Part shown: one piece after another, positions 10,101-53,542 of the stretch
Position numbering within the stretch: the stretch's first letter is position 1
How the letters are laid out: every line of letters begins with the position of its first letter
Virus record (IMG/VR): IMGVR_UViG_3300010429_001387
Location: 1-64,000 of that record
From: a virus
Lineage: Duplodnaviria > Heunggongvirae > Uroviricota > Caudoviricetes
Length of the DNA: 64,000 nt
Reading direction: 5' to 3' (one strand)
Position numbers and translations under genes: made by a program
Notes under the pieces: generated by a model
The model's database searches: none
What the model saw: the letters and a program-made list of their open reading frames with translations, nothing else
Told to the model about the DNA's origin: nothing

Positions 10101-10463
10101 CAACCATTTAATCTGTTCAATTGTAGGTTGTTTTTCAAAATCAATATACATCGTTTTATTTTCGGTTGAAGCTATTCGAATTGCACCAGAGACAATCAGT
10201 TCGTCAATATCAGAACCAGCGTCATATGCTGTTGAATAATGGATATCATCTACAAATATTGGTGTTCCATCATTTAACAGCCAAAATTTTACTAAATAGC
10301 TTTCAGTAGTAGCATGAGTAAAAAGCTCTGATTTCTTTGCAGGTCCAAAATGCTTTACTAAATTCTGTTGAACTTTAGGCAAAGCAGTTTCATTAACAAG
10401 AGAAACTTTCTTCTTGTCTTCTTTGAACAAATCTTTCGCATCATGAAAAATGCTATCAAACAT
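7200..10463 (-). CDS. Large protein (1087 aa) with a triplicated internal domain
   Basis: Three copies each of 'SLAAQFHES' and 'W(L/I)LNDG(T/S)' spaced about 280 aa apart. The matching DNA repeat 'ttcatggaattgtgctgctaaac' occurs near 7520, 8355 and 9960. Confidence 0.6.
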   Translation of the reverse strand: MFDSIFHDAKDLFKEDKKKVSLVNETALPKVQQNLVKHFGPAKKSELFTHATTESYLVKFWLLNDGTPIFVDDIHYSTAYDAGSDIDELIVSGAIRIASTENKTMYIDFEKQPTIEQIKWLQKLCDLHNTKTVVLEHIGTTFNIKSSKELPAILTGKVKQKSLAAQFHESVDEAVATKIRTNPMALTPLQAEIKGREQISFDIPNSLWTGAGEDQFLKFLILNDGSVVVVPAWHAATIAGKDWKKLKAVRFTSQEDEAYELQRLFLRSGGIRGRIVPNESISLDTGGTLNPKQIKSVMTLINKYKLYSVSIDLSLVQGGYATVDVTDTNRLKMALEDGPEFLNQPAYESEIQEANLSQLKKKQQSITRLFPDFYSNPKKVPGVAAKGGIRLHNMEKDKWEFRIHSATEDDLWYDAVVKWKNVGPDLERLVADRRNWNKKLNKVDLKKLAAKMFSNGDIELSCSCPAQLYWGGDYILSQDKYRAKYGEPENRSPDIRNPKKYGAYCKHLQNLMKVLPFYKGTMANWIKKFYNDVIEKAERKAKETAARFKAAGIALGKKKVESITEETAKGRDLGKSGFVFPDGRIFENDPRKEHADYVDDDASFLELQALEYRIYPAWVYDNKATIVVRTRGILTKEQVIAVNKLINGWHEPIQCMIVQRLNPPYMEGSIEPIDDNWPEELRSILAMGRNVRSLAAQFHESKKQLLETAGVVFSDGRSEILSTGEVHRKYFEKTALQFRTYGETDLVLNLYEEPTTKQMIQLKNILKEEGFKPKRIEIEMIFPEVKKLAKGYKWSDTDYQTAYELIEPVPWTWTVLVRQKYQKECQKAANESIQESDELPELQQGFKAKFPPATQKQLMTKSTFPGEHVVKLWILNDGTILWVKCAHFDILLPHTYGYGVAKNTGMIRVSSDIDKGELHLDFNQKPTQQQIIALQEIAKLHDSTSLWIDRTGDSIPLRSSSDLSAYLRGEEVHAPSLAAQFHESLQEEKLATYVVYVSKEYFPKEMWPKEIGHVSHLGMWKIKAPIGKRSEAAKIAWEQHKDEILSHIQPWIKKISLNVSSEYEGKYPKKNCYAGRMEPITVWQKGT

Positions 10464-16360: not shown

Positions 16361-19300
16361 TTATGATATGACTATAAAACGGTGCATATCGGTAGCGAAC
16401 CACTGTCTGTTTGAATTAGGAATTTCTTTTGACTCAATCAGAATACGATCCTTTTCAACCTTTCGGACCACACCTTCTTCAATCACTGGATAGAAATTAC
16501 GAGACAGCATGACTTGAACTGTATCATTCTCTTTAATTTCTACATCAACTGGCTTGGTCTTGTTCAATCCTAAGATTAAATTAGCAATTTGAACAGATTC
16601 GTCAGATTCTTCAACAACAGGAGCAGTTACAACTTCTTCAACTTTGCTCTCATCAACCTTAGATTCCTTTGCAGCCTTAGAAATCTTAATTGATGGATAC
16701 TTAGCATGCACTGCGGAAGCAACTTTCTTTTTCATAGTATCTAAACTCCCTGTATACCATTTAGGTGCTGAACTATATTGATTTACACGAGCTAATGCAT
16801 TGCGAGCTTGTCCAATGTTGTTAATTGGAAAATGATCTTTGTCATCTTTTACTGACTTAGATCCAGCTGGGAATACAACATTGCCACGATTGCGAACTTC
16901 TGCTTTAGGATCCTTTTTAGCTTCTTCAACAGTTTCTGATTCTTTCATTTTACATTCATCTTCTTCGTATTCAGCTTCCTCATTATCAATATTAGCGTAA
17001 TATTCCTCTTCATCCTCACCCTCTTCCTCATCTCCATCTCGTGTATTAACTACAACACGTCGACCATCTGTATTAACCGAAAATTCACCGTTTTCGGCTT
17101 CAAACCGTAAATTGTTTTGTACATCAAAAACTCGACCCATACTTTCGGCTTCTTTTCGATCAACTTTCCACATGGATTCAGGAACAATTCCTAAAACACC
17201 TGCATCAACCCCATATCGAATACCATCTGATCCTTTATACTCCCCATCACCATACGCTGTGCCTGCAACTGCAAATTTACCTTCAGGAGAATCATACACT
17301 CCATCATTAAAATCACATTTATCTCCCCAAAAACCATGATACATCTCATCTTTCATAACATAACAAATATCCCCGAAGTAATACACACCAGGCTCAAATG
17401 TTGTTGCAACAACTTCTTCAGGCTTATAGGCTTCTTTGAGATGTGTTTTGTGATTACCAGCTTTTCGATTCTCTTTCATTTCATTGATTTTAGATTCCCG
17501 CATCAATGAAACTCCCTTAGGCAACAGAGCATTAACCGCTTTAATATCCTTAACTCCCTTTAATTCAAAACCAGCATCAGTTTGTCGAGCACTTTTAACT
17601 AATCTTCGATTAACAATTTGCTGGACAGCTGCAGCAATAGCTTCTACATCTCCAGCTTTTGCATCTGGAGAATCTGGAATGTGATAATTGGCTTCTTCAA
17701 CAGTTTCTTCTTTTACACATTCCTCAGTTGGCTCGTCAATTTCTTCTTCATGGGTACGATCCCCAGGTTCATCACAAGCACCCTTTTCCATACGATCCAG
17801 GTGTGTGTAATATTGAGGATCTTCTGCTAGATGATCCATGGCAATCTCTTTAGCAAGTTCAGGTGTGTTAGTATGTTCTAACTCAACCTTGATTCCCATC
17901 TGCAATTGTTCGGGATCAAATTCATCTTCGGCTCGATTGTCTGCTAATCCACCTGAGAGAATGTCTTTGTGATCTTCCTTTACACATTCCTCATCCTCTG
18001 ATTTACGCATACCTGGCAATCCAGCTTTTCGCCTGGCTGAAGCTTTATATGGACCAGTACCATCTCGTTTGCCTGGAGACTCATAACCTTCGTTCTTCTT
18101 GGACTCACCAATCTTAACAATCTTAGTAACCTTTTCCACACCTTTCTTACGAGCCATCATCTGCTTAGCATCATCTTCATCAAATGCTTCGACTCGCATT
18201 TTCTTTTCGACACCATCCACAACAAATGTAACTTCATACACGTGTTTGATGACGCCATAGTCTTCTTCTTGTATATTAGATTCTGCTAATTCAATCTCGT
18301 CATCTGCTAAATTTAATTCACGTCCATCATCAAATTTAACAAAATAAACACCTTCATCTTCATTATCTTTTCGAATTGAGGTTGCTATCCCAACCTTTCC
18401 AACATAATTTTTTGCCCAACGAGGCAATGGTTCATCATGCCCATGCATTTTCTCACCAGTAAACCTAACTCGTTTTCCTCGATAATCAATCCCTTCTTCT
18501 TCCATGAGTGTCTTAATTACTTTCTCTTCATTGTCATCTTTGTTAGGGACTTTACCTTCCATTGTTTCTTCCGACATACCAGCAGCTTCTTGAGCTTTCT
18601 TCAAGAGCTCTTCCTCTTCAGGCTCCAGCATACCTTTGCTTTTCATCTTCATAAGATGTGTTACTAATTGTGTGGCGAAGTATTTATTACCCTCTTCTTG
18701 AGATGCTGGTGCAAAATCTTCACCAAACTCATTGACTTTGGATTCATTAAAATCAGACATATCTAAATCATTTCGAACCTCATAATGAATTAATTTTTGG
18801 ATGCCTGGGATTACATTGTTTCTTATCTTTTGTTTAACCTCAGATAATTTTTCTTCTACAACATATTCAGTTGACCCTGCACCTGTCGACATGAAATGAA
18901 ATCCTAATTTTTCTCTCATTATCTTATCGAGAGTTGGGTCTTCATTGAATGCCTCTTCATCAACTGAAATTAAAACAACTGTTTCTTGGACTTTGGATTC
19001 ATTCTTAGATTCCACCGTCCGCTGTGCAACCAATTCAACATAATCTTGTTCATCAAGATGGGATATGGTTTCCAATGCTAATTCTTTAATACCCTCATCA
19101 GTCATGCGACCTTCATTTGCACCAAATAGATGTGCAAAGTCTGCAGTGAATCGATATTCTTTGTCATTGATTCGAAGCTTAATCCTCTTTTCTGTTTCGT
19201 CTAAAAGTTCAATATCAAATTCGTTTCCCTTTTCATCCTTGATGAGAGTTTCAGACAATTTCTTTTTCATATCTCCATCCTTAGATTCCATTGGTTTGGT

Positions 19301-20101
19301 TTTTGGCTTAGCAGGTTCAGTTGGCTCAGGAGCAGGAAGTTCTTCTTCCTCTTCTTCACCACCCATAAACTCTTCAGGCTCTTCCTCTTCAGGTTCAATT
19401 TCTTCTTCCTCTTCATCTTCAGGAAGGATGTATTGTAACACAACAGATCTTTCTAATTGTGCAATATCAACTTCTTGGATGACCTTGTCGATAAATGTTT
19501 CAACATTTGTTGGATCCAGATCATGTTCCTTAGCTGAATAAACCGGATCTCCTTCTTGATTAACTAATTGGAGATCGGTGACTTCAGCTTCTTCAGATCT
19601 GTCAACAACAAGATAATAATGAACATCATCTGTATGTCCAATGTAGATCTTATCGAAATCGATTTCAGCTGGTTCTTCTTCCTCTTCAGGCTCATCGGTT
19701 AGCTCAGGATTAGGCTGTTCCTCTTCCCCTGGCGTGATCTCTTTGTCTGCTTTGGGTTGGAAGGCTTTGTCGAATTCTTTGTCCTTTGGATCCTCAGGAG
19801 CTTCCATTAAAGTCTTAATTACTTTCTCTTCATTGTCATCTTTGTTAGGGACTTTGCCTTCAGCTTTAACTTTAGCTAAGTTCCTACGGAGAAGTTCAGC
19901 TTCTACTTCTCTCTTGTCATGCTCATATGTTTCGTATCGTTTACCTGTAGGATCTTTATATCCTTCATCCATTTCTTTGTAGAAAGCAATTAGTTCTTGA
20001 TCTCCCATTTCGTAAATGTGACAAACACATTCGTGCATGGGAATATCTCGCATGAAATTATCTTTGTTGTCTACAAATTCGCGAATCCAATCACGCTTCA
20101 T
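16361..20101 (-). CDS. Giant acidic protein (1246 aa); candidate internal head or ejected protein
   Basis: Poly-Glu tracts and two copies of 'EGKVPNKDDNEEKVIKTLME'. A C-terminal 'GIKVELEHT...AMDHLAEDPQYY' domain is present. It lies upstream of the head genes. Confidence 0.55.
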   Translation of the reverse strand: MKRDWIREFVDNKDNFMRDIPMHECVCHIYEMGDQELIAFYKEMDEGYKDPTGKRYETYEHDKREVEAELLRRNLAKVKAEGKVPNKDDNEEKVIKTLMEAPEDPKDKEFDKAFQPKADKEITPGEEEQPNPELTDEPEEEEEPAEIDFDKIYIGHTDDVHYYLVVDRSEEAEVTDLQLVNQEGDPVYSAKEHDLDPTNVETFIDKVIQEVDIAQLERSVVLQYILPEDEEEEEIEPEEEEPEEFMGGEEEEEELPAPEPTEPAKPKTKPMESKDGDMKKKLSETLIKDEKGNEFDIELLDETEKRIKLRINDKEYRFTADFAHLFGANEGRMTDEGIKELALETISHLDEQDYVELVAQRTVESKNESKVQETVVLISVDEEAFNEDPTLDKIMREKLGFHFMSTGAGSTEYVVEEKLSEVKQKIRNNVIPGIQKLIHYEVRNDLDMSDFNESKVNEFGEDFAPASQEEGNKYFATQLVTHLMKMKSKGMLEPEEEELLKKAQEAAGMSEETMEGKVPNKDDNEEKVIKTLMEEEGIDYRGKRVRFTGEKMHGHDEPLPRWAKNYVGKVGIATSIRKDNEDEGVYFVKFDDGRELNLADDEIELAESNIQEEDYGVIKHVYEVTFVVDGVEKKMRVEAFDEDDAKQMMARKKGVEKVTKIVKIGESKKNEGYESPGKRDGTGPYKASARRKAGLPGMRKSEDEECVKEDHKDILSGGLADNRAEDEFDPEQLQMGIKVELEHTNTPELAKEIAMDHLAEDPQYYTHLDRMEKGACDEPGDRTHEEEIDEPTEECVKEETVEEANYHIPDSPDAKAGDVEAIAAAVQQIVNRRLVKSARQTDAGFELKGVKDIKAVNALLPKGVSLMRESKINEMKENRKAGNHKTHLKEAYKPEEVVATTFEPGVYYFGDICYVMKDEMYHGFWGDKCDFNDGVYDSPEGKFAVAGTAYGDGEYKGSDGIRYGVDAGVLGIVPESMWKVDRKEAESMGRVFDVQNNLRFEAENGEFSVNTDGRRVVVNTRDGDEEEGEDEEEYYANIDNEEAEYEEDECKMKESETVEEAKKDPKAEVRNRGNVVFPAGSKSVKDDKDHFPINNIGQARNALARVNQYSSAPKWYTGSLDTMKKKVASAVHAKYPSIKISKAAKESKVDESKVEEVVTAPVVEESDESVQIANLILGLNKTKPVDVEIKENDTVQVMLSRNFYPVIEEGVVRKVEKDRILIESKEIPNSNRQWFATDMHRFIVIS

Positions 20102-22560: not shown

Positions 22561-24672
22561 TTAATTGTTTATAAGATTATCTCCTGTTGCAATTCCATCA
22601 TTAAATATGTTGGGAGATTTATCCTTTTTGTTTTGAGCAAATGTTCCTGTATATTCTGTTCCATTTGCTCCATACCCTATACCATCAACAACATTGGATG
22701 CTCCAGGAAGAACATCTGTTCCAGAGAATTCAATTCCACCAGCACCATAGCTAGTCCCAGTTCTTACTTTTCCAACTACAGGAAGTTTTAACATTCCTAT
22801 CTTTTCGGCGAATTGATAATCCACACCATCCCGAACATCAGCTTCATCGGGATAATCACCATCTTTTGTCCAGGCAAAGTAGACATCACCACTGGCTCTC
22901 TTGGCTGTTAGACGAACCCACACAAGTTTAGGAATTGAACCAGTATTCTTATAAGATACGACAACTTCTTGCCACCCTGTTTCGGTTCCACTTACAATAT
23001 CAGAATCCAATGAAGTGTAACTACTTGATACAATAGGATCGCTTCCCTGGTCAATAATCTCCAATCTTGGAGGATAAGTCGAATGGTCATCTGCAATCTT
23101 AATATACCCACGAACTCGCAAAGTCTCCCCAGGCATTATAGTAACTGGTTCCTGATAGAAACCATGAAATGTCGCCGACTCGCAAGTTAATTTTAATCCC
23201 TGTGTATATCCTGTAGGAACAGTAATGGTTTCACTCTCCGTAATTCCACCCTTAGAAAGTGTTTTGATAGCAGAAGCCGTACCATCCACTCCATGCCAGA
23301 GAACATAACCGTTCGCAAGAGTCCATTCGTTGTTGTAATCAACGAACTCGGTAGCCCCCAAGAGAGATACATCGGTCAATGTGACAAAGGGACACCGGCG
23401 AAATGCTGTTGTATCATTGCTTGTGGTGTTCGAGCAGGTGACGGTGCAGTTGTTGAACCCATTGTTATTCCCGCTGCTTGTGCCTCCGCTCCAGGTGACG
23501 GTGCACGTATAGAATCCATTGCTATTCCCGCTACTTGTGCCTCCGCTCCAGGTGACGGTGCACGTATGGAATCCATTGCTATTCCCGCTACTTGTGCCGC
23601 CAGACCAGATGACTGTGCAAAGATAAAACCCGGTACTATTCCCACTGCCTGTACCTCCAGTCCATGTGACGGAGCAGAGATTGAATGTGTTGGTATTTCC
23701 GGCACTTGTGCCATTAGACCATATAACACCACAGGTATGGAATACACTGTTGTTCCCGCTACTTGTACCACCAGACCAAGTAACAGTGGAGTTATGAAAC
23801 CCTCTTGACCAACCAGAGGCCCATCCGCTCGTCGGACCAACGCCATAATACCCACCATCTACAGTCAATCCCGTACAGGCATCAAACCCAAATCCCTGTC
23901 CTGCTGTAGCACAGTACATCCAAGCATCGACTCTGGCATTAACAGCATTAGCAATACACTTTTGAGACGATCCAGACCCACCTATGATCTTAACGTTTCG
24001 TGTGGCAAGAGCAATTATACAAGGATAGTTCCCCGCTGTTTTTGCGGCAGTCAATCCAGCCGTAACAGTGATAGTGGAAGCAGCAATTCCCCCAGCAGCA
24101 ATAACACGAGTTTCATGTTCCTGTGCCTTTTGTAAATCACAAATTGAAACCGTATCACCAGCAGCCCAGATGTCCCCAGTGACATTTGTGTCTACGCTCA
24201 ATTCAGTCTGACCTATAGCTTCGTCAGCGGACAATCGAATAATAGGATTAGCTGGTTCGGCACAGAGAATCTTAATATCGAGATACGTTCCGTCGATATA
24301 ACCTGTCGTCATACACTCAATAGTCACTTTACTGGCAAACGGATGTCGAGTATCTCCAGTGGCCCAGGCTCCATCGGAATTGCACAACAATCTGCCTTTG
24401 GTGGCAGCATTTGTCCCATTAATAGTAGTTCCTGTTTTGATCTTAAGATGCTTAGTCGTAGCTCCAACATTGAAGAATAACATCCCTGGTGTGGTTGCAT
24501 GGCTGGTAATAGTCAATCCTGCAATACCATTAGCAAAACCCGATTGATCTACATCGAATTCCACCGAATGACCTGCAGCAATGACAACTGTGTCATTATC
24601 AGCAGGGACACCTGTGTCCCAAGTACCGGCAACAGACCACTTACCTGATCCTATAGAAGTTATCGTAGCCAT
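22561..24672 (-). CDS. Tail fibre/tailspike protein with a tandem repeat array
   Basis: 703 aa and Gly/Thr/Ser-rich. It has at least six tandem 22-aa repeats 'TWSGGTSSGNSNGF(Y/H)TCTV', encoded by 66-bp DNA repeats at about 23390-23800. Confidence 0.55.
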   Translation of the reverse strand: MATITSIGSGKWSVAGTWDTGVPADNDTVVIAAGHSVEFDVDQSGFANGIAGLTITSHATTPGMLFFNVGATTKHLKIKTGTTINGTNAATKGRLLCNSDGAWATGDTRHPFASKVTIECMTTGYIDGTYLDIKILCAEPANPIIRLSADEAIGQTELSVDTNVTGDIWAAGDTVSICDLQKAQEHETRVIAAGGIAASTITVTAGLTAAKTAGNYPCIIALATRNVKIIGGSGSSQKCIANAVNARVDAWMYCATAGQGFGFDACTGLTVDGGYYGVGPTSGWASGWSRGFHNSTVTWSGGTSSGNNSVFHTCGVIWSNGTSAGNTNTFNLCSVTWTGGTGSGNSTGFYLCTVIWSGGTSSGNSNGFHTCTVTWSGGTSSGNSNGFYTCTVTWSGGTSSGNNNGFNNCTVTCSNTTSNDTTAFRRCPFVTLTDVSLLGATEFVDYNNEWTLANGYVLWHGVDGTASAIKTLSKGGITESETITVPTGYTQGLKLTCESATFHGFYQEPVTIMPGETLRVRGYIKIADDHSTYPPRLEIIDQGSDPIVSSSYTSLDSDIVSGTETGWQEVVVSYKNTGSIPKLVWVRLTAKRASGDVYFAWTKDGDYPDEADVRDGVDYQFAEKIGMLKLPVVGKVRTGTSYGAGGIEFSGTDVLPGASNVVDGIGYGANGTEYTGTFAQNKKDKSPNIFNDGIATGDNLINN
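23390..23800. repeat. Tandem repeats of about 66 bp inside the tail fibre gene
   Basis: Repeated 'ccgctccaggtgacggtgcacgtatagaatccattgctattcccgctacttgtgcctc' units. They create mirror-image spurious ORFs on both strands. Confidence 0.75.
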
Positions 24673-44065: not shown

Positions 44066-46021
44066 TCATCCATGGTGTAAACCTCGTATCTTTTTCAATA
44101 GTTCATTATACTGAATTGCCTCTTGATTCTTTGGTGGAATTGGGTCTTCTCGCTTGATTTGTATGCCTGCATCTACCCACCAGAGTTTTTCCGCTTCCCT
44201 TACTTCTGGCTTCATTTTTCCAAACAATTGATTCATCATCTCAATATCTGGTGGGGTAATACATTCTTTGATTGCTTGTGTTATAGAACCACCAACCGCA
44301 TCACTAATATCTTTTGACCCCATAAGAACTATTTCGCGGAGATTGCCTGTTTCCAACATTTCAACTTCCACAACTTCAGCAGGATGATCAACCATATTCT
44401 TTTCAGGGTCATCTTCAAGATTCTTTAATTCAAAATGCAGATATGGGTGCCACGGTGTGGACCATCGGCCTTCACAAACTAATGTAGCAAAATCCCTATA
44501 GTCTTGGGGATTTTTATCCATAGATAGATAGTCACAGGCTATGCCAGCACGTTCGAGAATTTGTTTGGTATCTTCTGTTCCGATTCTTAAATCGAAAGTA
44601 CATCGATGGATATTAAACTTACAAACTTCTTTAAGATCTAAAATGAACTTACGAATTTTGTGGATCGGAATCTTGTCACCAGGGTGTGCCTTGATACGCA
44701 TTGCAAAGTCCGTGTGGGTCACAGGGACACGTTCTGTCCTGAATGTACCATCTGCATTTTCAATATTCTTTTTCGTCCACCCTGTAATGCAGGACATGGC
44801 TAATCCACTAGCATCCCCATCACCGGAATATGCGTAGTCCTGATGGATAAAGCGAGGAACATTCTTAGGAACTTTAATAGATGTTATGTCAAGAAAATTC
44901 ATTAAGTCAATGTTATCATTAAGTCCAACCTCAACTGTCATTAATTTAACAGGATTTGGGTCTTTCGTATAACATTTCATTAGCATGGTTTCAGAAGGAA
45001 ACAATTTGGAAACACGAACATGGGAAACAGATATGCCAGCGATGTCCCGAAGTGAGCAGACCAAATCTTTCTGAAATGGTTCTAAATATTCAATGGGGAC
45101 ATCAATAATTTGAAACCCTTTAGCCTGGAATTCTTTTGCTTCCTCATCTGTATCACAAATCTTTGGAGGATTGTAAATATCCCCAACAGAGACTTTAAAC
45201 TTCTTTCCACAATAATTCGAAGCTGGTTTTGCTTCCCAAATTGGAATATCAATGATAACAATATTTGGAGAATTTTTATACTTAGCAATAAATGTGTTTA
45301 AAAAGCTTAATCTTTCTTGCTTTGATGCAACAAGAAAAAATCTTCCAATTGTCTCACCTTTAACAATAAATCGAGAATCAAGACGTCTACGTGCATTTTC
45401 ATAGGCTTCAATAACTTTAGCTCGTTGAATATCGGATGCAACAGGAGAATCTACCTCGTCCATCAAAGCCAAAATGATATTTTCACCCTGAGTCCCAAAA
45501 CCTTGAACAAACGGTGATGCAAATGTATACTTAAACAAATTAAATTCTAACTTCGGTTGAAGCTCTGAGCCTTTCACAATCCCATGTTCACGGAACCAAG
45601 ACGAACTTAATAGCATGGTTTGAAAGAGTTTGTATCCGGTGCTTTCGGATTGAGATTTTGTTAAATTAAAAAACACAATCGACATCTGCGAACCAGACCC
45701 AAGTTTAAAGTATTCCCAAGGGTTTTTCAAACATAGAATTCGACACATTGTATACAACATACCTATAATTGCTGTATACGTTTTTCCTCCCCCAATACAA
45801 CCCGTAAAGACATATAAAAATTTAGAATCTTCTTGAGCCACCTTCTCCAACACTTGTTGCCAAATTGGATACACTACACTCCCATTATTGGTAATAGTGC
45901 CTAAATACTTAGGATCAGCAAGGAATTGCTTAATTGTGGGCGGTCGTTCTTTGTAATTAAGTGAGTATATGTACTCTATATAATTTTCAATTTTGTGATC
46001 CATTTGAACTTCCTTTTTCAA
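44066..46021 (-). CDS. Terminase large subunit (candidate)
   Basis: Walker A 'FTGCIGGGKTYTA' and Walker B-like 'IILALMDEVD'. The C-terminal half has clustered acidic residues ('IHQDYAYSGDGDASG'). 651 aa. Confidence 0.5.
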   Translation of the reverse strand: MKKEVQMDHKIENYIEYIYSLNYKERPPTIKQFLADPKYLGTITNNGSVVYPIWQQVLEKVAQEDSKFLYVFTGCIGGGKTYTAIIGMLYTMCRILCLKNPWEYFKLGSGSQMSIVFFNLTKSQSESTGYKLFQTMLLSSSWFREHGIVKGSELQPKLEFNLFKYTFASPFVQGFGTQGENIILALMDEVDSPVASDIQRAKVIEAYENARRRLDSRFIVKGETIGRFFLVASKQERLSFLNTFIAKYKNSPNIVIIDIPIWEAKPASNYCGKKFKVSVGDIYNPPKICDTDEEAKEFQAKGFQIIDVPIEYLEPFQKDLVCSLRDIAGISVSHVRVSKLFPSETMLMKCYTKDPNPVKLMTVEVGLNDNIDLMNFLDITSIKVPKNVPRFIHQDYAYSGDGDASGLAMSCITGWTKKNIENADGTFRTERVPVTHTDFAMRIKAHPGDKIPIHKIRKFILDLKEVCKFNIHRCTFDLRIGTEDTKQILERAGIACDYLSMDKNPQDYRDFATLVCEGRWSTPWHPYLHFELKNLEDDPEKNMVDHPAEVVEVEMLETGNLREIVLMGSKDISDAVGGSITQAIKECITPPDIEMMNQLFGKMKPEVREAEKLWWVDAGIQIKREDPIPPKNQEAIQYNELLKKIRGLHHG

Positions 46022-46724: not shown

Positions 46725-47076
46725 GCAAATCTAAGACACCACAAAGCACAACCGCATGCTTCTTACCTCGTTTATCCGGAACTAATGATCTCCAGGGAAC
46801 CCAATGATCGTAAAACACCAGAGAACCCGGAACTAAGGATGGATCTGTTGGAAACCACCGACCTTCTTTATCGTGGTATCCTGGCCCAATTGCCAACAAT
46901 ATTCCCCAACCTTCGGATACAAATTCTTCGCGAAGATGTTCAGGAATTAAAATGTTACCTCCCTCAACAAATGTTGTTGGCAGAGGTTTAGGATAGATAA
47001 AAACTCGATCGGCTGTTGGTTTCCAAGGAAATTGGAGTTTTCCTCGTTTGTTGTGGAATGGTGTTTGCAAATCCAT
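46702..47076 (-). CDS. GroES/gp31-like co-chaperonin (candidate)
   Basis: 'RVFIYPKP...GGNILIPEH...GWGILLAIGPG...GSLVFYD' follows GroES beta-barrel spacing with an insertion. Confidence 0.35.
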   Translation of the reverse strand: MDLQTPFHNKRGKLQFPWKPTADRVFIYPKPLPTTFVEGGNILIPEHLREEFVSEGWGILLAIGPGYHDKEGRWFPTDPSLVPGSLVFYDHWVPWRSLVPDKRGKKHAVVLCGVLDLHAIVKKD

Positions 47077-47094
47077 CCTTGGCTCCTCTAATCG

Positions 47095-47418
47095 TTAAAG
47101 TTGCAACCTATTAAGAATGTCAATAGCTCCATTATCAATAGCTTCAAGCTGGTTTCGTATAGCCGAAAGTTGTTGCAATAAAGAACTGCCATGCGACGAT
47201 TGATCATCTTTCACATTTGGTGCTTGAGAAGTTGGAACATTAGGCTCTTTTACAATTTCTAATCTTGCTGACAATTGCAAAAGGTGATCTTGCAAAATGT
47301 GTAACCTTGAAGTTATTTGATTTAATCCATTTTCTATGGGGGAAAGATCCTGTTCACGTTTACAATCACCCACGCATGTTGACCCAAATGTGGTATTTAC
47401 AGTTACTCTTGGCTCCAT
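47095..47418 (-). CDS. Hypothetical coiled-coil protein (107 aa)
   Basis: ORF on the coding strand. Confidence 0.35.
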   Translation of the reverse strand: MEPRVTVNTTFGSTCVGDCKREQDLSPIENGLNQITSRLHILQDHLLQLSARLEIVKEPNVPTSQAPNVKDDQSSHGSSLLQQLSAIRNQLEAIDNGAIDILNRLQL

Positions 47419-47432
47419 TGTTCTATCTCCAA

Positions 47433-48068
47433 TTAAAGTGTTGCCTTAATCTTTGCGACGGTTTCTTTGGTATCAGCTGATTGAGCCGCAGCCAACTTTG
47501 CCTTCAATGCTTCTGCTTCACCATTTCCTGTCTTGATGAATGCTTGAACACCCTTTACTAGTTCAATAATCTGACGATCCTTTGCAGTCACTTCACCCTT
47601 AACTTCCGATACCACTTGTTCCATTTCCTGTTGAGTAATGTCACCAGGACGCTTCCGCATCAATCCAATCATACCTGTAAGACCACCAAATCCAGCTAAT
47701 CCAAGACCCATCGACAGCAAGCCAGTTTCGCTAAACAACATCTCTTCCTTCTGCTTAGCAATTTCAAGATTCTTGGCTGCAATATCATGAAGCAGATTAT
47801 AGTCAAGATTATTCTTTTCTTGAAGCTGTTGCAATGCTAATGTATTGACCTCATAAGCAGCTACAATTGCCCTCGCAAGCTTCTCAGCCTTATGTAAATT
47901 AGCATAGCCTTTAAATTCATTTGCGTCAACAACTCCAGCCTTGTCAACGTAGTTGATGGCTTGCTTATTAAGCTCAGCTGGAGTTATATATTCGGACAAT
48001 GCCACACACCCAATTCCACTAATTGCCATAATTCCCAACAATACATATGCTACGATCTTCATTCTCAT
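47433..48068 (-). CDS. Membrane/lipoprotein-like coiled-coil protein (211 aa)
   Basis: N-terminal signal 'IVAYVLLGIMAISGIGC', a second TM 'LLSMGLGLAGFGGLTGMIGLM', and a coiled-coil region. Confidence 0.4.
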   Translation of the reverse strand: MRMKIVAYVLLGIMAISGIGCVALSEYITPAELNKQAINYVDKAGVVDANEFKGYANLHKAEKLARAIVAAYEVNTLALQQLQEKNNLDYNLLHDIAAKNLEIAKQKEEMLFSETGLLSMGLGLAGFGGLTGMIGLMRKRPGDITQQEMEQVVSEVKGEVTAKDRQIIELVKGVQAFIKTGNGEAEALKAKLAAAQSADTKETVAKIKATL

Positions 48069-48080
48069 TTCTCCTTAAAT

Positions 48081-48344
48081 TTAAACCAATTCTTCTTTTG
48101 TGAGAGCATACACAGTACCATCCGATGCCCAAGAAGCCCAACATTTATAATAAATTTTTTGCAACCAAACCCATCTTCCTGAATTCAATTGTACGGGTCT
48201 CCAGGCAAACCATTTCTGTGCATACATAAATGGGTTTTTAAGATCTCGTTCTTGATGTGTTTTTCCCCAAATCATTATTAATATCTCCAATAATCTGTAT
48301 GAAACAATATGAGAACGATCATCAAGGGTCCTAAACATGAACAC
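48081..48344 (-). CDS. Hypothetical protein (87 aa)
   Basis: Trp-rich ORF. Confidence 0.35.
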   Translation of the reverse strand: MFMFRTLDDRSHIVSYRLLEILIMIWGKTHQERDLKNPFMYAQKWFAWRPVQLNSGRWVWLQKIYYKCWASWASDGTVYALTKEELV

Positions 48345-48444
48345 ATAAGACTATACCACAAATTGATTTCATTAAATGATTTCTTCCAATCTAAATACCC
48401 GAGAAATCCTCCAACAATCACCCAAAGAAAAACCATCAAATAAA

Positions 48445-49068
48445 TCATTTTATTCTCTCCACAAAACTAATTCCATCTTCTTGTTCAACTTTGTAGCACA
48501 CATCCGCAGCATCAATAAGATTTTGCTCATGTGTAACCATAATTGTTTGCACTTCCAACAAGGAAGTTAATTCTCGAATCATGTGCTGCAAAAGAGGCAG
48601 TCTTGCCTTATCAACATACTTCAAAGGCTCATCAAAGAACATGATTGATGATGTTCTGTCTATTTGAATCGCCCAACAAGTGAAGCGTAAAGCAAAGGAT
48701 ACAACATCAACCACACCACCACCTAATTCTTCTTTTAGCGAAAACTTTTGATTTCCTTTAATCACATAAAAATTGGTTTCCGGTTGATTTCGGACTATTT
48801 GATTTTCAATAGTAAATCCATATTCCGAACCAAATACAAATTGCAAAGCATCTGTTACTAATAATTCAATTACTTCTCTTACTTCGGTTTGAGCTAACAC
48901 ACCCACAAGATTAAATACTTCTTGAACCTGTTTAAGTTCGTTTAATTTAGTGTTTAGGTCTTGTACATCACAAGCTAACTCATTAAATTGTTGAGTTAAA
49001 ACCTCCTGCTTAGCTCTTGTCTTTTGAACATATTCACGATAAAGCTTAAACTTCTGCATTTTTCCCAT
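48445..49068 (-). CDS. Rad50/SbcC ATPase, C-terminal half (signature, Walker B, D-loop, H-loop)
   Basis: 'LGGGVVDVVSFALRF' is signature-like. 'IMFFDEPLKYVD' is Walker B. 'MVTHEQ' is the H-loop. Confidence 0.55.
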   Translation of the reverse strand: MGKMQKFKLYREYVQKTRAKQEVLTQQFNELACDVQDLNTKLNELKQVQEVFNLVGVLAQTEVREVIELLVTDALQFVFGSEYGFTIENQIVRNQPETNFYVIKGNQKFSLKEELGGGVVDVVSFALRFTCWAIQIDRTSSIMFFDEPLKYVDKARLPLLQHMIRELTSLLEVQTIMVTHEQNLIDAADVCYKVEQEDGISFVERIK

Positions 49069-49282
49069 TACCTAAATAGATTTCAATCTTAGTACCTAAT
49101 GGAAGTTTTTCACAGGGAAGTACCAAAGGTTGCATTGGCGAAAGATTTGTCTTGTCTTCACCATTTGGTCCAGAGGTAACCCAAAACTTTGTACCAGTTA
49201 AACGATGTCGCATTAACACCGCTGATCCATCCGGTTTATTCTTTCTTCGAAATGGATTCCACATTATCAACTCCCTTTGCAT
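49046..49282 (-). CDS. Hypothetical protein (78 aa)
   Basis: Short ORF between the coiled-coil piece and the Rad50 C-terminal half. Confidence 0.35.
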   Translation of the reverse strand: MQRELIMWNPFRRKNKPDGSAVLMRHRLTGTKFWVTSGPNGEDKTNLSPMQPLVLPCEKLPLGTKIEIYLGNGKNAEV

Positions 49283-49514
49283 TGTTAATAATCTTATCTA
49301 ATTCAGCATCAATCTCTTGAAGACGTTTTTCATTTTCGGAAACTGTTTCCAACAATCGAGCTAATTCTTTTTCTGCTTCCTCAATAGAATTCAACCCTAA
49401 AGCTGATAATTGCTTCATAACTTCTTCCATACGTCCTTGTCGTTTTGCTTCTTGCCGAATCAAATCTTCAAGGATCTTCTGCTTTTGGTTTAGTTGATCA
49501 ATTATTTGACTCAT
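49236..49514 (-). CDS. Coiled-coil protein (92 aa), possibly the returning Rad50 coiled-coil arm
   Basis: Heptad-rich 'LNQKQKILEDLIRQEAKRQ...LARLLETVSENEKRLQEIDAELDKI'. Confidence 0.4.
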   Translation of the reverse strand: MSQIIDQLNQKQKILEDLIRQEAKRQGRMEEVMKQLSALGLNSIEEAEKELARLLETVSENEKRLQEIDAELDKIINNAKGVDNVESISKKE

Positions 49515-50440
49515 TGTGTGTCACACTCCAAAAGGATATCATTAATTATTTCTTGCACAGTTGTTGAAACATTCTTTTCTTGGAGCACATCGGAAAGCAT
49601 AGATTTCCACCCAACTTTAGCAGCTTCCGAATCCTTTAATCTATTAATAAACTGCTCTAGGGATTGTTTGTTCGGAGAACTATCTTCTATTTTCGTTAAA
49701 TCAAATACTTCTTCAACTGGCTTACAATCCAAAGGAAAATCTTGTATCGTTAAATCAGGAATCGAAACCACACATACTTTCGGTTGCAACCCTTCTCGAA
49801 CATCATTAAGATTTTTGCGAACTATACATCCAGGATTTAAAATTTTACGACCTTGATATTCATCATAGAACGAATAGTGATAATCTCCACAAAGAATAAG
49901 ACTGTAATCGGGATTTGCTCTTAAGAATGCTCGAGGATTCTCCAACTCTTGTCCCGGAAACAAGGGACGATTTCCTATCATACGATGTGTGACTAAAATG
50001 TTAACTGCTTTTGGATTTTCTACTAAAGGAACATCTTCTCCAAAGGAAGCTCCATAGAAATAAACCGGAGCAGATTGATCTTTTTTCGTATTTACAACGA
50101 ATTCTCCCAGGATTTGCAACGCATTAGCCGATTCCAAAACAGCTAACGGACTATTAGAAAGTGTTCCTAAATTATGTCCTGATAAATCGTGTTGGCCACT
50201 AACACATAACAATCTTTGAGGATAGGATAGCAATAATCGAGTTACTTCCGCAATTACTCGATTTGCGACTGTTGGTGTATCAAAAAAATCACCAACTTGT
50301 ATAACATATAAGCAGTCCTCTTGGGTAAATATATCGAATGCCTGTTTAAGTTTTCCTAAGATTGTTTCAAAATAACTGTCCTTCCTTCTGGCAGGACTTC
50401 GGTTTGTTATATGCAAATCACCCAACACACCTATTTTCAC
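49511..50440 (-). CDS. Mre11/SbcD-family nuclease (calcineurin-like phosphoesterase)
   Basis: 'MKIGVLGDLHI' (motif I), 'VIQVGDFFD' (motif II), 'GQHDL' and 'ILCGDYH'. Confidence 0.6.
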   Translation of the reverse strand: MKIGVLGDLHITNRSPARRKDSYFETILGKLKQAFDIFTQEDCLYVIQVGDFFDTPTVANRVIAEVTRLLLSYPQRLLCVSGQHDLSGHNLGTLSNSPLAVLESANALQILGEFVVNTKKDQSAPVYFYGASFGEDVPLVENPKAVNILVTHRMIGNRPLFPGQELENPRAFLRANPDYSLILCGDYHYSFYDEYQGRKILNPGCIVRKNLNDVREGLQPKVCVVSIPDLTIQDFPLDCKPVEEVFDLTKIEDSSPNKQSLEQFINRLKDSEAAKVGWKSMLSDVLQEKNVSTTVQEIINDILLECDTQ

Positions 50441-51690
50441 AGTTTATTTCCTAACAAGATTTTCTTTGTCTGTTCAGTCAATTTGCTGCCACAAGATGGA
50501 CAAGTATCTAACTGTTGCTTTAGGTGTTGAACTTCTTCTTCAACTTGAATCACTTTTTGAACTCCAGAAGCAATGTCTAAATCAAGATCTTTATACACAT
50601 AAATCAAATCAGATATTTGAACAGCATTTGTAGCTGTTTCATTAAATACCTTTATCTGCTGTGCTTTTTCTTCTAAGCAAACAGTGACTTTTGCAACATC
50701 AACATATTTTGATCTTTGAGCAGCTTTATACGATGCAACCATTGCAGAAAGGTTGTTGATTTGAGCAGCCCAATGTTGTATAGTTGCCGTTGTTTGTATG
50801 ATATCATCAAAATAATTAAACAAAATCGTTTCTTCTGGAAGTTGGACTTGAGCTTCCTTTAAGTTCTTCACATTTTCTAAACAAGAATCAATTGCAACTT
50901 TTTGTTGTGTGGCTTCATTTACTTTCTTTTCCACCAATGTGGCTTCGGCTATTAATTCCACGATTCGATCCATCGGAAGGGAAATCTTCTTTGATTCCAA
51001 TTCCTTAATTTGAGCCACTAACTCACTAAGATCCACAATTGATTGACTATCGTCAGCAATAAAATCTTGAAGATGTGTTGCTGTGTCTAACAATTCTTCA
51101 AGCTTAGATAACGGAATTTGCTGGATGGTATCCAACTCTTCTTTCAGTACATCTAATGATTCCTGCTTCTCGACGATTCGTGAATTAACAGTACGAATCC
51201 GTTTAGCTGTTATCTCAACAGCCTTATCTAATTTCTGCAAACCAGTAATATTTCTTAGGTACTCTGAAATACTACCAGGAGAATCAAAAACTAAAAACGA
51301 TGGACTAAATTGCCCCTGCAAGTTAATATCAGACAAATTCAAAGCATTTGTAACTTCTGGCGGTGGAGATTGTCCAAAAGCTGTGAATTCTCCTTGAAAA
51401 TTTGGAGCATTTAATTCATAGTAATTCTTAGATTTACCACGAGAACGAATAACTTGTACTTTACCTTTAGTCCCATCAAAGATCAAATCAACTAACGCAT
51501 CCGATTGTCCTTTACGAATGAAACTTTCACCTAAAGGACGATTGTTTAAAACCCAATTAATTGCTCGGATGCAGGCTGACTTCCCAGCATTGGATTCCCC
51601 AACAATCACATTTACTCCAGGAGAAAACTCCATAAAGGTATCTTGATGTGATTGAAAATCTTTAATTCGAATCGATTTTAACATTACCAA
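50437..51690 (-). CDS. Rad50/SbcC ATPase, N-terminal half plus coiled-coil plus zinc hook
   Basis: Walker A 'VIVGESNAGKSA', a long coiled coil, and a C-terminal 'CPSCGSKL' CxxC hook. Confidence 0.6.
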   Translation of the reverse strand: MVMLKSIRIKDFQSHQDTFMEFSPGVNVIVGESNAGKSACIRAINWVLNNRPLGESFIRKGQSDALVDLIFDGTKGKVQVIRSRGKSKNYYELNAPNFQGEFTAFGQSPPPEVTNALNLSDINLQGQFSPSFLVFDSPGSISEYLRNITGLQKLDKAVEITAKRIRTVNSRIVEKQESLDVLKEELDTIQQIPLSKLEELLDTATHLQDFIADDSQSIVDLSELVAQIKELESKKISLPMDRIVELIAEATLVEKKVNEATQQKVAIDSCLENVKNLKEAQVQLPEETILFNYFDDIIQTTATIQHWAAQINNLSAMVASYKAAQRSKYVDVAKVTVCLEEKAQQIKVFNETATNAVQISDLIYVYKDLDLDIASGVQKVIQVEEEVQHLKQQLDTCPSCGSKLTEQTKKILLGNKL

Positions 51691-52385
51691 ATCTTCTCAA
51701 TAAATGGACGATCTAATAAATTCACAGGATATGTTTTTGTGACTCGATTAAATACTCTGATTTGATGCTCGGGAAGATCTTTAAGTTGAAGTTTTCCTAA
51801 ACGTAATAACATTTCTGTTCGTAGCAAAGATGCCAGGAAATATGCATCAGCAACATCTGTACCGGGACCAGCTAATTCTGTTTTCTTACCCTTTTTTGAT
51901 GACTTTACATATACATCTAATCCAGTTTCTTTCTTAAATTGATTATATATCGTTTCTTTTGAGGCATGTCCATTTCCTACAGCAAACAATTTTACACTAT
52001 CTGGATCGTGAACCCGGATAGCTGCTCCTCCCAATAAAAGTTGGGTTTTCAAATAACCTGTTAATTCTGCAATCTCATATTGGCGTGGTGAATCAGAAGC
52101 ATATCCATATCCTTCAATTGATACCATCAATATCGTATTTGCACAGTTATAAATATCATAGAGTCTTCTAAGCAAACCTACAATATAAATCATGCGATCA
52201 AAATGCTCTGAAGAATCACATCTCGCAGAAGGAATTTGATGATGCACTGAATGATGTTTGTCAACTTCAACATCCTTTTTAACATCTGTCATATAATAAT
52301 AGTCTAAAACTTTGCCTTCTTCATCAAGAAGGCATGATCCAAAATGATTTAATGACAAATCAATTCCCAAAAATTTCATTACCAC
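51684..52385 (-). CDS. RuvC-like Holliday-junction resolvase (candidate)
   Basis: 'FLGIDLSLNHFGSC' is an RNase-H-fold N-terminal Asp motif. Later acidic residues occur in 'SIEGYGYAS' and 'DVADAYFLA'. Confidence 0.45.
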   Translation of the reverse strand: MVMKFLGIDLSLNHFGSCLLDEEGKVLDYYYMTDVKKDVEVDKHHSVHHQIPSARCDSSEHFDRMIYIVGLLRRLYDIYNCANTILMVSIEGYGYASDSPRQYEIAELTGYLKTQLLLGGAAIRVHDPDSVKLFAVGNGHASKETIYNQFKKETGLDVYVKSSKKGKKTELAGPGTDVADAYFLASLLRTEMLLRLGKLQLKDLPEHQIRVFNRVTKTYPVNLLDRPFIEKIW

Positions 52386-53542
52386 ACTCTCGGCTTTCTA
52401 TCTTCGGTTTCGTATTGTCGTTCCCAAACCTTAGCCACAACACGCTTCAATTGTTCCTCTCGTGCCTGATCTTCAATAACAGGGACCCAATCCATGATTC
52501 GCTTATTACAGGCATTTTCCTTAGGATCAACAATTATTTCCCCATCACAATCTTTAGTTGTGCATTTCTCATCAGTTATATCCAACAAAGCCCCACATTT
52601 CTTACAAACGGGAATGAAAACTTTGGTTGTTAATTTATACAAATCATCTTTAGATGTTTCTTTTTGTGTATCAGCCAAGAAGGAAAGTGAAGAAGTAATA
52701 TCATCCAAACCATAATCAAACAGAATTTTGAAGTGTCCTTTTCTAAATGGGGGACCTATCTTATTTTTCTCGACCTGATATTTTACCCAAATACCAATCT
52801 CTTTATCATTCGAATTAGTTACTTTCTTATCATGTTTCAAATATAAACGTACTGAAGAATAAAATTCTAATCCTCGACCACCCGTTGTAACTTCGCTGGC
52901 ATATGGAGAATTCACATTATCTCGCGTTTGATCAATACAAAATAATGTTACATCCTTATCAACCATGTCCTTAATATATTTTCGCAACCCCAAACCAATT
53001 TGTTTGGCTCGATATGCTCCAAATCCTTGCTTAGACATTTCTGTTTTGAGTTCAAATGCAGCTGGTAAAGCAGTGATGGTGTCCACCACAACAATTTTAG
53101 GTTTACGAGTCCGTATTTTCAAAATTCCACTCAAATAAGTATCAAAAAATTCCTCAATACTTCCAGGTTGTTCTAATGTCTTCATATCTTTGTTATAGGA
53201 ATATCCATAGAAGAAATCAGCGTGGGTGCAATCAAGCCCATACATTTTTGCAAATTGAGGATCAAATGTATACTCAATATCTGCTAAAAATGCTTGCTTA
53301 CCGGATCGTAATGCATAGCCTAAAACGGTACTCGCCAAAACTGATTTAGCTGTGCTGGCCCCACCATATACGTGAAAGATCCGGCCCACCGGAATTCCAC
53401 CAGGTAATTGGTTTGAAATTGCTAAGTCTAAAACAGTTGCTCCAGTAGAACACCAATCTTTCACTTCAGGAAAGTCATCAAATTCACAGGCTGCAGCAGT
53501 TTCTTGGATTTCTTTTCCCAATTCTTCGGTCTTTTTACTCAT
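52379..53542 (-). CDS. RecA-superfamily recombinase-like ATPase with a C-terminal zinc ribbon
   Basis: P-loop-like 'YGGASTAKS' and Walker B 'IVVVDTITAL'. The C-terminal 'CKKCG...CTTKDC' is a zinc ribbon. Confidence 0.45.
   Translation of the reverse strand: MSKKTEELGKEIQETAAACEFDDFPEVKDWCSTGATVLDLAISNQLPGGIPVGRIFHVYGGASTAKSVLASTVLGYALRSGKQAFLADIEYTFDPQFAKMYGLDCTHADFFYGYSYNKDMKTLEQPGSIEEFFDTYLSGILKIRTRKPKIVVVDTITALPAAFELKTEMSKQGFGAYRAKQIGLGLRKYIKDMVDKDVTLFCIDQTRDNVNSPYASEVTTGGRGLEFYSSVRLYLKHDKKVTNSNDKEIGIWVKYQVEKNKIGPPFRKGHFKILFDYGLDDITSSLSFLADTQKETSKDDLYKLTTKVFIPVCKKCGALLDITDEKCTTKDCDGEIIVDPKENACNKRIMDWVPVIEDQAREEQLKRVVAKVWERQYETEDRKPRVW

Follow-up and report, generated by a model that had tools for sequence, protein, structure and literature searches.

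Gene content of the locus

The stretch of DNA analysed here comprises positions 1 to 64,000 of the IMG/VR record IMGVR_UViG_3300010429_001387, a Caudoviricetes virus, and its whole length of 64,000 nucleotides (nt) is referred to as the window. The subject of this work is a locus of the window where the ATPase Rad50 (SbcC) is encoded in separate pieces, with the gene of its partner nuclease Mre11/SbcD placed between the two ATPase halves. Five open reading frames (ORFs), all on the minus strand, follow one another in the order Rad50 N-half, Mre11/SbcD, a protein of 92 amino acids (aa), a protein of 78 aa and Rad50 C-half. The locus had been pointed out in an earlier note on this DNA, and all five ORFs are present where it placed them.

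The first gene of the string (50437..51690, minus strand, 417 aa) encodes an ATP-binding cassette (ABC) ATPase N-lobe, from which a long helical arm leads to a zinc hook at the C-terminus. In the family libraries the protein is matched by Pfam AAA_23 (8e-15), by SMC_N over its N part and by phrog_16465, labelled 'exonuclease' (2e-31), and the best match of the protein among solved structures is the N chain of Pyrococcus furiosus Rad50 (1ii8_A, 7e-12). The Walker A motif GESNAGKS (51577..51600, minus strand) contains G31, G36 and K37, which are invariant in 40 homologues, as is Q127 of the Q-loop in the 40 aligned N-halves. The AlphaFold2 (AF2) model of the N-half, with a predicted local distance difference test score (pLDDT) of 80, consists of the N-lobe, helices at residues 151-190, 194-233, 240-279 and 293-393, and then the CPSC knuckle; the top Foldseek neighbours of this model are Rad50 N chains (2e-8).

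The zinc-hook motif DTCPSCGSKLTEQTKKIL lies at 50455..50508 on the minus strand, the CPSC itself occupying 50491-50502. CPSCGSKL corresponds to residues 397-404 of the N-half, and the polypeptide stops 17 residues past the second Cys. Both C397 and C400 are invariant in the 40 aligned N-halves and P398 is conserved in at least 90% of them. Among solved structures, a profile restricted to the C-terminal ~80 residues of the N-halves picks out those of the P. furiosus Rad50 zinc hook, 1L8D (5e-9) and 6ZFF (2e-8), in an alignment where CPtCGseLTeesrkkLL pairs with CPVCGRELTDEHREELLS, flanking residues included. A CxxC motif is located 2-29 aa from the C-terminus (median 17) in 130 of 131 distinct N-halves, the remaining one being devoid of the motif. 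By these comparisons, the tail of the N-half is a genuine Rad50 hook, which would be expected to bind zinc. Motif conservation and the hook-structure matches bear out the N-half features listed in the earlier note, namely Walker A, the long coil and the terminal CxxC in CPSCGSKL. Its placing of the break at the hook apex needs a correction: the break is indeed near the hook, but the descending helix still runs for about 17 residues before the chain ends.

The last gene of the string (48445..49068, minus strand, 207 aa) encodes about 60 aa of coil and then the ABC-ATPase C-lobe. Library matches are to the C part only of SMC_N (2e-8; profile positions 113-218 of 220) and to phrog_15167, a family of 211 positions labelled 'ATPase' (3.5e-30). 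The C-half profile aligns end to end with the C chains of P. furiosus Rad50 (3qkr_B, 3e-16; 1ii8_B, 9e-16; a chain of 174-179 residues), and the C-half covers positions 698-894 of 895 in the NCBIfam Rad50 model PRK01156. All the motifs of a Rad50 C-lobe are present in the C-half family, the signature in a variant form. In the window, the signature equivalent EELGGGVVDV (48703..48732, minus strand) aligns to LSGGE of P. furiosus Rad50, with G118 and D121 invariant and G116 and G117 conserved in at least 90% of the sequences. The Walker B motif and D-loop, IMFFDEPLKYVD (48610..48645, minus strand), contain the invariant residues D146, E147 and P148, and the H-loop region QTIMVTHE (48526..48549, minus strand) contains the invariant Q174 together with T179 and H180, which are at least 90% conserved. 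This conservation and the match to Rad50 C chains confirm that signature, Walker B, D-loop and H-loop had been correctly recognised in this ORF. An important consequence is that the catalytic motifs of one ABC site are shared out over the N-half and the C-half, so that neither alone could be an ATPase.

Between the N-half gene and the gene of the 92-aa protein lies an ORF with its own start (49511..50440, minus strand, 309 aa), unfused to any Rad50 piece, that encodes an Mre11/SbcD-type nuclease. Evidence for this assignment comes from matches to Metallophos_2 (calcineurin-like phosphoesterases; 2e-9), to the SbcD-like phrog_100 (1e-8) and to the annotated SbcD of phage phBC6A51 (1e-27), as well as from the presence of the motifs GDLH, GDFFD and GQHD. 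Both the identity proposed for this gene and its position between the ATPase halves are thereby established.

A family of split Rad50 loci

For comparison, 160 loci were fetched with the C-half profile, corresponding to 80 of 294 bacterial and archaeal relatives (one genome per species) and 80 of 315 uncultured viral contigs, and to these were added close relatives and three deposited Bacillus phages. None of the approximately 170 C-half ORFs in this collection is joined to an N-half. The N-half gene (N), a small gene homologous to that of the 92-aa protein (s) and the C-half gene (C) are found together in 142 loci, accompanied by Mre11/SbcD (M) in 141 of them. In all 142, N, s and C are on one strand and in that order, which is colinear with canonical Rad50. 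The survey of related phages that the earlier note had suggested thus finds the same architecture in phages and also in bacterial chromosomes.

The position of Mre11 differs between members of the family. The window and nearly all viral contigs belong to the 78 loci with the order N-M-s-C; M-N-s-C is present in 58 loci, mostly Bacillota chromosomes and often between recA and rny; N-s-C-M in 5 loci, which are Bacillus phages; and N-s-C in one locus. The median gap for most adjacent gene pairs is -4 to 3 nt (2.5 nt from s to C), whereas N and M are separated by a median of 121 nt, most other junctions being overlaps. In many viral relatives the interval from the N-half to Mre11 is occupied by an additional ORF, which is not conserved (192 aa in locus L004, 118 aa at L009:6216-6572, 206 aa in L099). 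Because the same two break points are found in every gene order, the fission has to be older than the rearrangements, and Mre11 is therefore unlikely to have caused it by its arrival between the halves. The presence of Mre11 at that position is probably a rearrangement. The suggestion of an insertion and fission event, or else of separate subunits, is therefore correct as far as the division into separate genes is concerned, but the existence of three gene orders makes it improbable that the insertion of Mre11 was the cause. Similarly, the arrangement was rightly described as an unusual fragmentation in that it departs from the canonical single chain; it is, however, an old, family-wide trait and not a peculiarity of this genome.

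The size of the family was estimated by an exhaustive profile search of 1.84 billion cluster representatives, which at E<=1e-30 returned 2,265 matches; the family therefore contains at least 2,265 clusters at 50% identity. The best 150 of these 2,265 strong matches are all half-length, 169-304 aa each. The same is true of 118 of 118 database homologues of the C-half (140-247 aa) and of 41 of 41 homologues of the N-half (303-485 aa). A Rad50 made as a single polypeptide was thus found neither in the window and the 142 loci, where three genes are present, nor as a full-length homologue among these 118, 41 and 150 relatives. In each of the five genes of the window locus, synonymous codon changes outnumber non-synonymous ones in comparison with a 92%-identical relative (L007); the genes are under purifying selection.

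The third piece of the module is the small coiled-coil protein (49236..49514, minus strand, 92 aa). It is made of two helices of about 36 residues parted by a short break containing Gly or Pro, which in the window is LGLNS. The 92-aa protein has no match in Pfam or PHROGs and belongs to no existing family. A jackhmmer search started from it gave 159 matches in 158 loci, 66-208 aa in length, 153 of them not longer than 101 aa. The search finds an 80-aa protein of Tepidanaerobacter at 2e-16 and the reverse search finds the window protein at 1e-11; the family also includes BC1854 of phBC6A51 and gp34 of phage vB_BboS-125. In 142 of 142 loci the small gene is located between the N and C genes. This context points to the small protein as the return (descending) strand of the Rad50 arm, and it lends support to the idea, raised in the earlier note, that the return arm is itself split.

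Such support does not extend to the fourth minus-strand ORF in this part of the string (49046..49282, 78 aa), which could also have been considered a piece of the arm. Homologues of the 78-aa protein are present in 12 loci only, all from the clade of the window. They share the conserved core GYAVL..D..TG..W.T..G.G.D...LS..QP..FP..K.P..T...IY, and the protein is without a match in Pfam, PHROGs, NCBIfam and PADLOC. With 15 synonymous and 4 non-synonymous codon changes relative to L007, it is a real, selected, clade-specific accessory gene, inserted between s and C and lying outside both the arm and the universal module.

In vB_BboS-125, the exact junction of the N-half and small-protein genes is occupied by a gene for a 190-aa AP2-domain protein (gp33; L003:3584-4156). 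The AP2 domain is common in homing-endonuclease-like phage ORFs, and this case hints that mobile inserts are tolerated at, or attracted to, N/s junctions. The window contains no mobile element, and an AP2-domain ORF at the N/s junction was seen in vB_BboS-125 only.

Proposed assembly of Rad50 from three polypeptides

The reading that we consider likely is that the locus encodes a working Mre11-Rad50 (SbcCD-type) machine that processes double-strand breaks in DNA, with a Rad50 that is assembled from three polypeptides. The N-half would contribute the lobe that carries Walker A and the Q-loop, along with the arm's ascending helix and, about 17 residues before its end, the CPxC zinc hook, and the C-half would contribute about 60 residues of coil and the lobe with the signature, Walker B, D-loop and H-loop. 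The N and C lobes would join non-covalently into one ABC-ATPase head. There is a precedent for heads made of two chains, since crystals of the P. furiosus Rad50 catalytic domain were obtained from N and C chains that had been expressed apart (PDB 1F2T/1II8), which shows that they assemble. The coiled-coil protein of about 85 aa would take the place of the descending strand on the way from the hook to the coil of the C-half. Mre11 would be the nuclease, its helical C-terminus probably clamping the base of the arm where the helices of the N- and C-half meet, and two such assemblies would be linked via zinc at their hooks. For the phage, the complex may serve in DNA-end resection for recombination-dependent replication and repair, like T4 gp46/gp47, beside the UvsX-like and RuvC-like genes.

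Several observations weigh against this reading, and most of them concern the arm. The length of the N-half ranges from 296 to 710 aa (standard deviation (sd) 70), whereas the small protein and the C-half are nearly constant (sd 8 and 13, respectively), and there is no correlation between the lengths of the N-half and of the small protein (rho 0.06). The ascending arm accordingly varies from ~140 to 440 aa across the family, while the return pieces remain the same. In the window, ~246 ascending residues face ~170 descending ones, and in bacterial N-halves of 480 aa the ascending excess reaches ~140 residues. Moreover, the profile of the small protein matched only generic coiled coils among solved structures, with no sequence match to a Rad50 arm; a hit to 1L8D with an E value of 0.18 was dismissed as not meaningful. 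The profile searches by which, according to the earlier note, the split could have been refuted do not refute it: the N-half and the C-half are tied to Rad50, and the small protein is linked to it by context, without a Rad50 sequence match. The remaining points concern catalysis. The Ser of the signature is replaced by Gly throughout the family, which has LGGGVVD in place of LSGGE (GGG instead of the canonical SGG), and motif III of Mre11 (window 50186-50203) reads GQHD where GNHD is canonical. This second change is shared with the close relatives L009 and L097, while the bacterial and Bacillus-phage members retain GNHD. Given these two substitutions, the activity of the complex is an assumption.

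The head-proximal and hook-proximal blocks are conserved, and the variable segment is mid-arm, at about residues 291-340 of the window protein, with the main insertion point of other members after residue 278. The shortest members (N-halves of 296-303 aa) have an ascending arm of ~140-150 aa, which equals the small protein (~80) plus the coil of the C-half (~60). In most members, however, the ascending arm could not be paired over its full length, the return pieces being too short. In a comparison with archaeal Rad50 models, positions ~473-698 have the small protein of ~85 aa as their only counterpart. Because the ascending arm outruns the return pieces, the extra residues must either fold on themselves or pair between the two N-halves of a dimer.

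A more speculative proposal, which we put forward only tentatively and think less probable than not, is that the split is no neutral fission but enables another architecture of the arm, in which the ascending helix has been freed to outgrow the return strand and the distal arm is not an intramolecular antiparallel coil. The distal arm could then possibly be a parallel coiled coil formed by the two N-halves of the dimer and zipped, starting where the return strand ends, up to the shared zinc, or it could possibly consist of self-folding helical inserts. If this were true, the Rad50 'ring' would be closed only by the non-covalent pairing of strands, and its reach would evolve through one gene.

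An arm built of tandem homologous units of ~46 aa, of which the small protein would be one more, was considered and rejected. A hidden Markov model (HMM) made from the window's four apparent units recovered just 6 out of 131 proteins, its own source and close relatives, and it matched neither any of the 131 small proteins nor the N-termini of the C-halves. Proline spacings of 40-59 residues are enriched (45% against 16% in random sequence), which represents a weak regularity. The AF2 model of the concatenated N-half, small protein and C-half, made in single-sequence mode, was uninformative (pLDDT 41; predicted template modelling score (pTM) 0.27).

Alternative explanations

The observations on the arm are also the basis of the strongest alternative. 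According to it, the N- and C-halves form the ATPase, but the small protein has an accessory or regulatory role as a subunit of its own, for instance by clamping the halves together as an adaptor or by bridging to Mre11 or DNA, and the arm stands alone, is self-folded or pairs with that of the second N-half. This explanation would account for a small protein that has no sequence link to any Rad50 arm and keeps a constant length while the arm varies 3-fold, for the mid-arm location of the variable segment, and for the AF2 model in which the N-half alone forms three helices of 40 residues and one of 100 residues. Set against it are the colinearity of N, s and C with canonical Rad50 in 142 of 142 loci, with s and C abutting or overlapping, and the minimal members, whose arm has the length of the small protein plus the C-half coil; in addition, an amphipathic helix of 140-440 residues without a partner is physically implausible. 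On balance, an accessory role of the small protein appears unlikely, though it deserves more weight than any of the explanations that follow.

Another possibility is that the module serves in defence against phages or plasmids, or in counter-defence, and not in recombination or repair, with an SMC-like ATPase of the Lamassu (LmuB), Gabija (GajA) or OLD type as its core. The ATPase pieces do give partial matches of 1e-10 to 1e-18 to the PADLOC models LmuB, AriA, GajA, Old and mad3, but most of these cover only the generic ABC N-terminus or the C-lobe, and the best matches over the full range are to Rad50. For the SMC-like defence systems LmuB, GajA, OLD and AriA no full-length model match was obtained, and the partners are not defence effectors: an Mre11/SbcD is present in 141 of 142 loci. 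The neighbourhood is likewise that of a housekeeping locus (recA, a RuvC-like gene and, in bacteria, rny) and not of a defence island, and the module of the window is located among the phage's own replication and recombination genes. A defence function is, on this evidence, very improbable.

Even less probable is that the pieces are rejoined after transcription into one Rad50 chain by an intron, intein trans-splicing, ribosomal bypass or a programmed frameshift. The genes are tightly packed, with overlapping stops and starts, and phages rejoin the products of other genes, as in the bypassing of T4 gene 60 or in split inteins. Nevertheless, an Rfam scan of 47000-53000 detected no RNA family and no group I or II intron. 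No piece contains an intein or Hint domain, nor do the ends have sequence to spare, the C-half beginning straight in the coil and the N-half ending just after the hook. In 78 loci Mre11 separates N from s, and unrelated ORFs intervene in others. The overlaps in the window, GTGA at the N-half/Mre11 junction and ATGA at the junction of Mre11 with the 92-aa gene, are the ordinary pattern of coupled separate genes.

The least probable explanation, a single-chain Rad50 broken by frameshift errors or by recent pseudogenisation, draws on the default suspicion that attaches to adjacent fragments of one family and on the ORF overlaps of 47 nt (92-aa/78-aa) and 23 nt (78-aa/C-half), and it can be set aside in view of the complete Mre11 gene between the pieces, the 84-nt junctions N/M and M/s, neither of which differs between three contigs assembled independently from JGI, ENA and Logan data, the same break points in 142 loci of phages and bacteria, the half-length of all 118, 41 and top 150 homologues, and the purifying selection on the genes. 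Inspection for frameshifts, which the earlier note had recommended, thus leads to the conclusion that the pieces cannot be fused, since Mre11 intervenes, the genes have starts of their own that overlap the preceding stops, and the junctions agree across assemblies. Sequencing error, pseudogenisation and post-transcriptional rejoining are excluded or very unlikely.

Neighbouring genes

The three-piece Rad50 with its Mre11 is part of a longer string in the window. Directly upstream of the N-half is a gene for a RuvC-like Holliday-junction resolvase (51684..52385, minus strand; phrog_159, 2.8e-19), the end of which overlaps the N-half start. The string is headed by a RecA/UvsX-like recombinase (52379..53542, minus strand; Pfam RecA, 4e-33; UvsX-like phrog_97, 1.8e-46). 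From recA through the RuvC-like gene, N, Mre11, s and the 78-aa gene to C, neighbouring genes overlap or abut throughout. The N-half ORF as delimited mechanically begins at a TTG at 51690 (MVMLKS...), but its true start is probably the ATG at 51684 (MLKS..., 415 aa), which is used in homologues and in gene calls on independent contigs and shares one base with the stop of the RuvC-like gene.

Linkage to recombination genes is common in the family. Upstream of the module, at no more than 3 kilobases (kb) and in the same orientation, a recA homologue is found in 61 of 80 viral loci and in 37 of 63 genome loci, and a rny homologue in 48 of 81 genome loci. The Tepidanaerobacter chromosome (L010/L011:5293-8684) has the order cinA-thpR-recA-M-N-s-C-rny-ymdB-spoVS, a housekeeping neighbourhood, which suggests that in Bacillota of this type the four-gene module is the cell's own SbcCD.

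As a whole, the window is that of a tailed phage, with genes for a major head protein, a prohead protease, a portal, a DNA polymerase and a sliding clamp. It has no cultured close relative, as judged from a megablast search of deposited phages with the 12 kb that surround the locus, which gave no match. Directly downstream of the C-half, at 48081-48448, there are a hydrophobic ORF of 56 aa (MIYLMVFLWVIVGGFLGYL...) and an ORF of 87 aa; small ORFs of 52-61 aa are likewise located downstream of the C-half in the relatives L007 and L008. The window also contains very large ORFs at 7200-10463 (1087 aa), 16361-20101 (1246 aa), 22561-24672 (703 aa) and 44066-46021 (651 aa), and those of 1087, 703 and 651 aa have no PHROG match at 1e-5.

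Relation to known systems

The split family shares with canonical Mre11-Rad50/SbcCD systems (archaeal Rad50, SbcCD of Escherichia coli, T4 gp46/gp47) the distribution of head motifs by lobe, the helical arm, the CPxC hook, the adjacent Mre11 and the linkage to recombination genes. In every feature of head and hook that could be compared, it is an Mre11-Rad50 system. The canonical Rad50 is one chain that goes up the arm, turns at the hook and comes back, whereas in the split family the chain ends about 17 residues past the hook and the return path would consist of the separate protein of ~85 aa plus the first ~60 residues of the separate C-half, a descending strand that is ~130 residues shorter than that of archaeal Rad50. 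The NCBIfam Rad50 equivalogs (PRK01156, PRK03918 and Rad50_Sulf) give at best 46-60 bits, below their cut-offs of 700-1000, and the matches are partial, the N-half aligning to the fronts of the models and the C-half to their last part. The engineered P. furiosus Rad50cd (PDB 1F2T/1F2U/1II8/3QKR) likewise consists of separate N and C polypeptides, which align with the N-lobe and the C-half encoded in the window. Rad50cd is, however, a laboratory truncation without arm and hook, while the split family is natural and possesses a full ascending arm, the hook and a third chain.

The opposite event, the fusion of Mre11 and Rad50 into one chain, has been described for Mimivirus R555 and its relatives, and gp8 of phage 0305phi8-36 was listed among these fusions (Yoshida et al., 2011, PMC3175470). 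In these proteins the same enzyme system has been joined into one chain, whereas in the split family fission has produced three. For 0305phi8-36, the authors indicated that one P-loop NTPase segment 'was not observed', and gp5 was not linked to it (Yoshida et al., 2011, PMC3175470). In our analysis of gp8 to gp5 (L001:1406-5442), gp8 is composed of Mre11 at aa 1-336 and, in fusion with it, the N-half at aa 337-769, which has CPTC at its end; gp5 is the C-half and gp7 the small protein, with an unrelated gp6 of 238 aa between gp7 and gp5. The segment missing from gp8 is thus the separately encoded gp5, and gp7 is the small protein. This lineage therefore displays one fusion and one fission together. 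Among the relatives, gp8 of 0305phi8-36 is the only Mre11-Rad50 fusion, and it involves the N-half only. The phages phBC6A51, vB_BboS-125 and 0305phi8-36 all have the same N/small/C arrangement with SbcD nearby.

Other enzymes that are single chains in cells are encoded by phages as co-assembling polypeptides, for instance NrdA in phage Aeh1 (PMC3045599) and the RNA polymerase and Pol III subunits of jumbo phages (PMC7824862). The breaks in these enzymes are in globular domains or derive from a resident homing endonuclease, while those of the split Rad50 are in the coiled coil and occur in phages and bacterial chromosomes alike. Searches of the searchable open-access literature, including the papers on 0305phi8-36, did not find a published description of a split Rad50/SbcC. 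The three-piece Rad50 is therefore apparently an undescribed, large family of phages and Bacillota chromosomes.

Implications for Mre11-Rad50 biology

The pieces of this Rad50 have so far been treated as unrelated proteins. PHROGs keeps the N- and C-halves as two separate generic families (phrog_16465 'exonuclease' and phrog_15167 'ATPase'), and the names used in GenBank are 'exonuclease', 'chromosome segregation ATPase' and 'hypothetical protein'. Recognition of the family is thus of value for annotation, where the labels are at present generic and where at least one published analysis took a phage Rad50 to lack half of its ATPase.

In models of Mre11-Rad50, the coiled coil is thought to relay signals between hook and head and to surround DNA as a closed ring or rod. 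With the arm cut just after the hook and the return strand probably a separate protein, the C-lobe is not covalently tethered to the hook. The existence of a large natural family with this organisation would refute the need for covalent continuity through the hook. The ascending and descending strands are independently variable in the split family, something that elsewhere requires protein engineering, and the family therefore provides a ready system for finding out which strand of the arm carries information and how the length of the arm is set.

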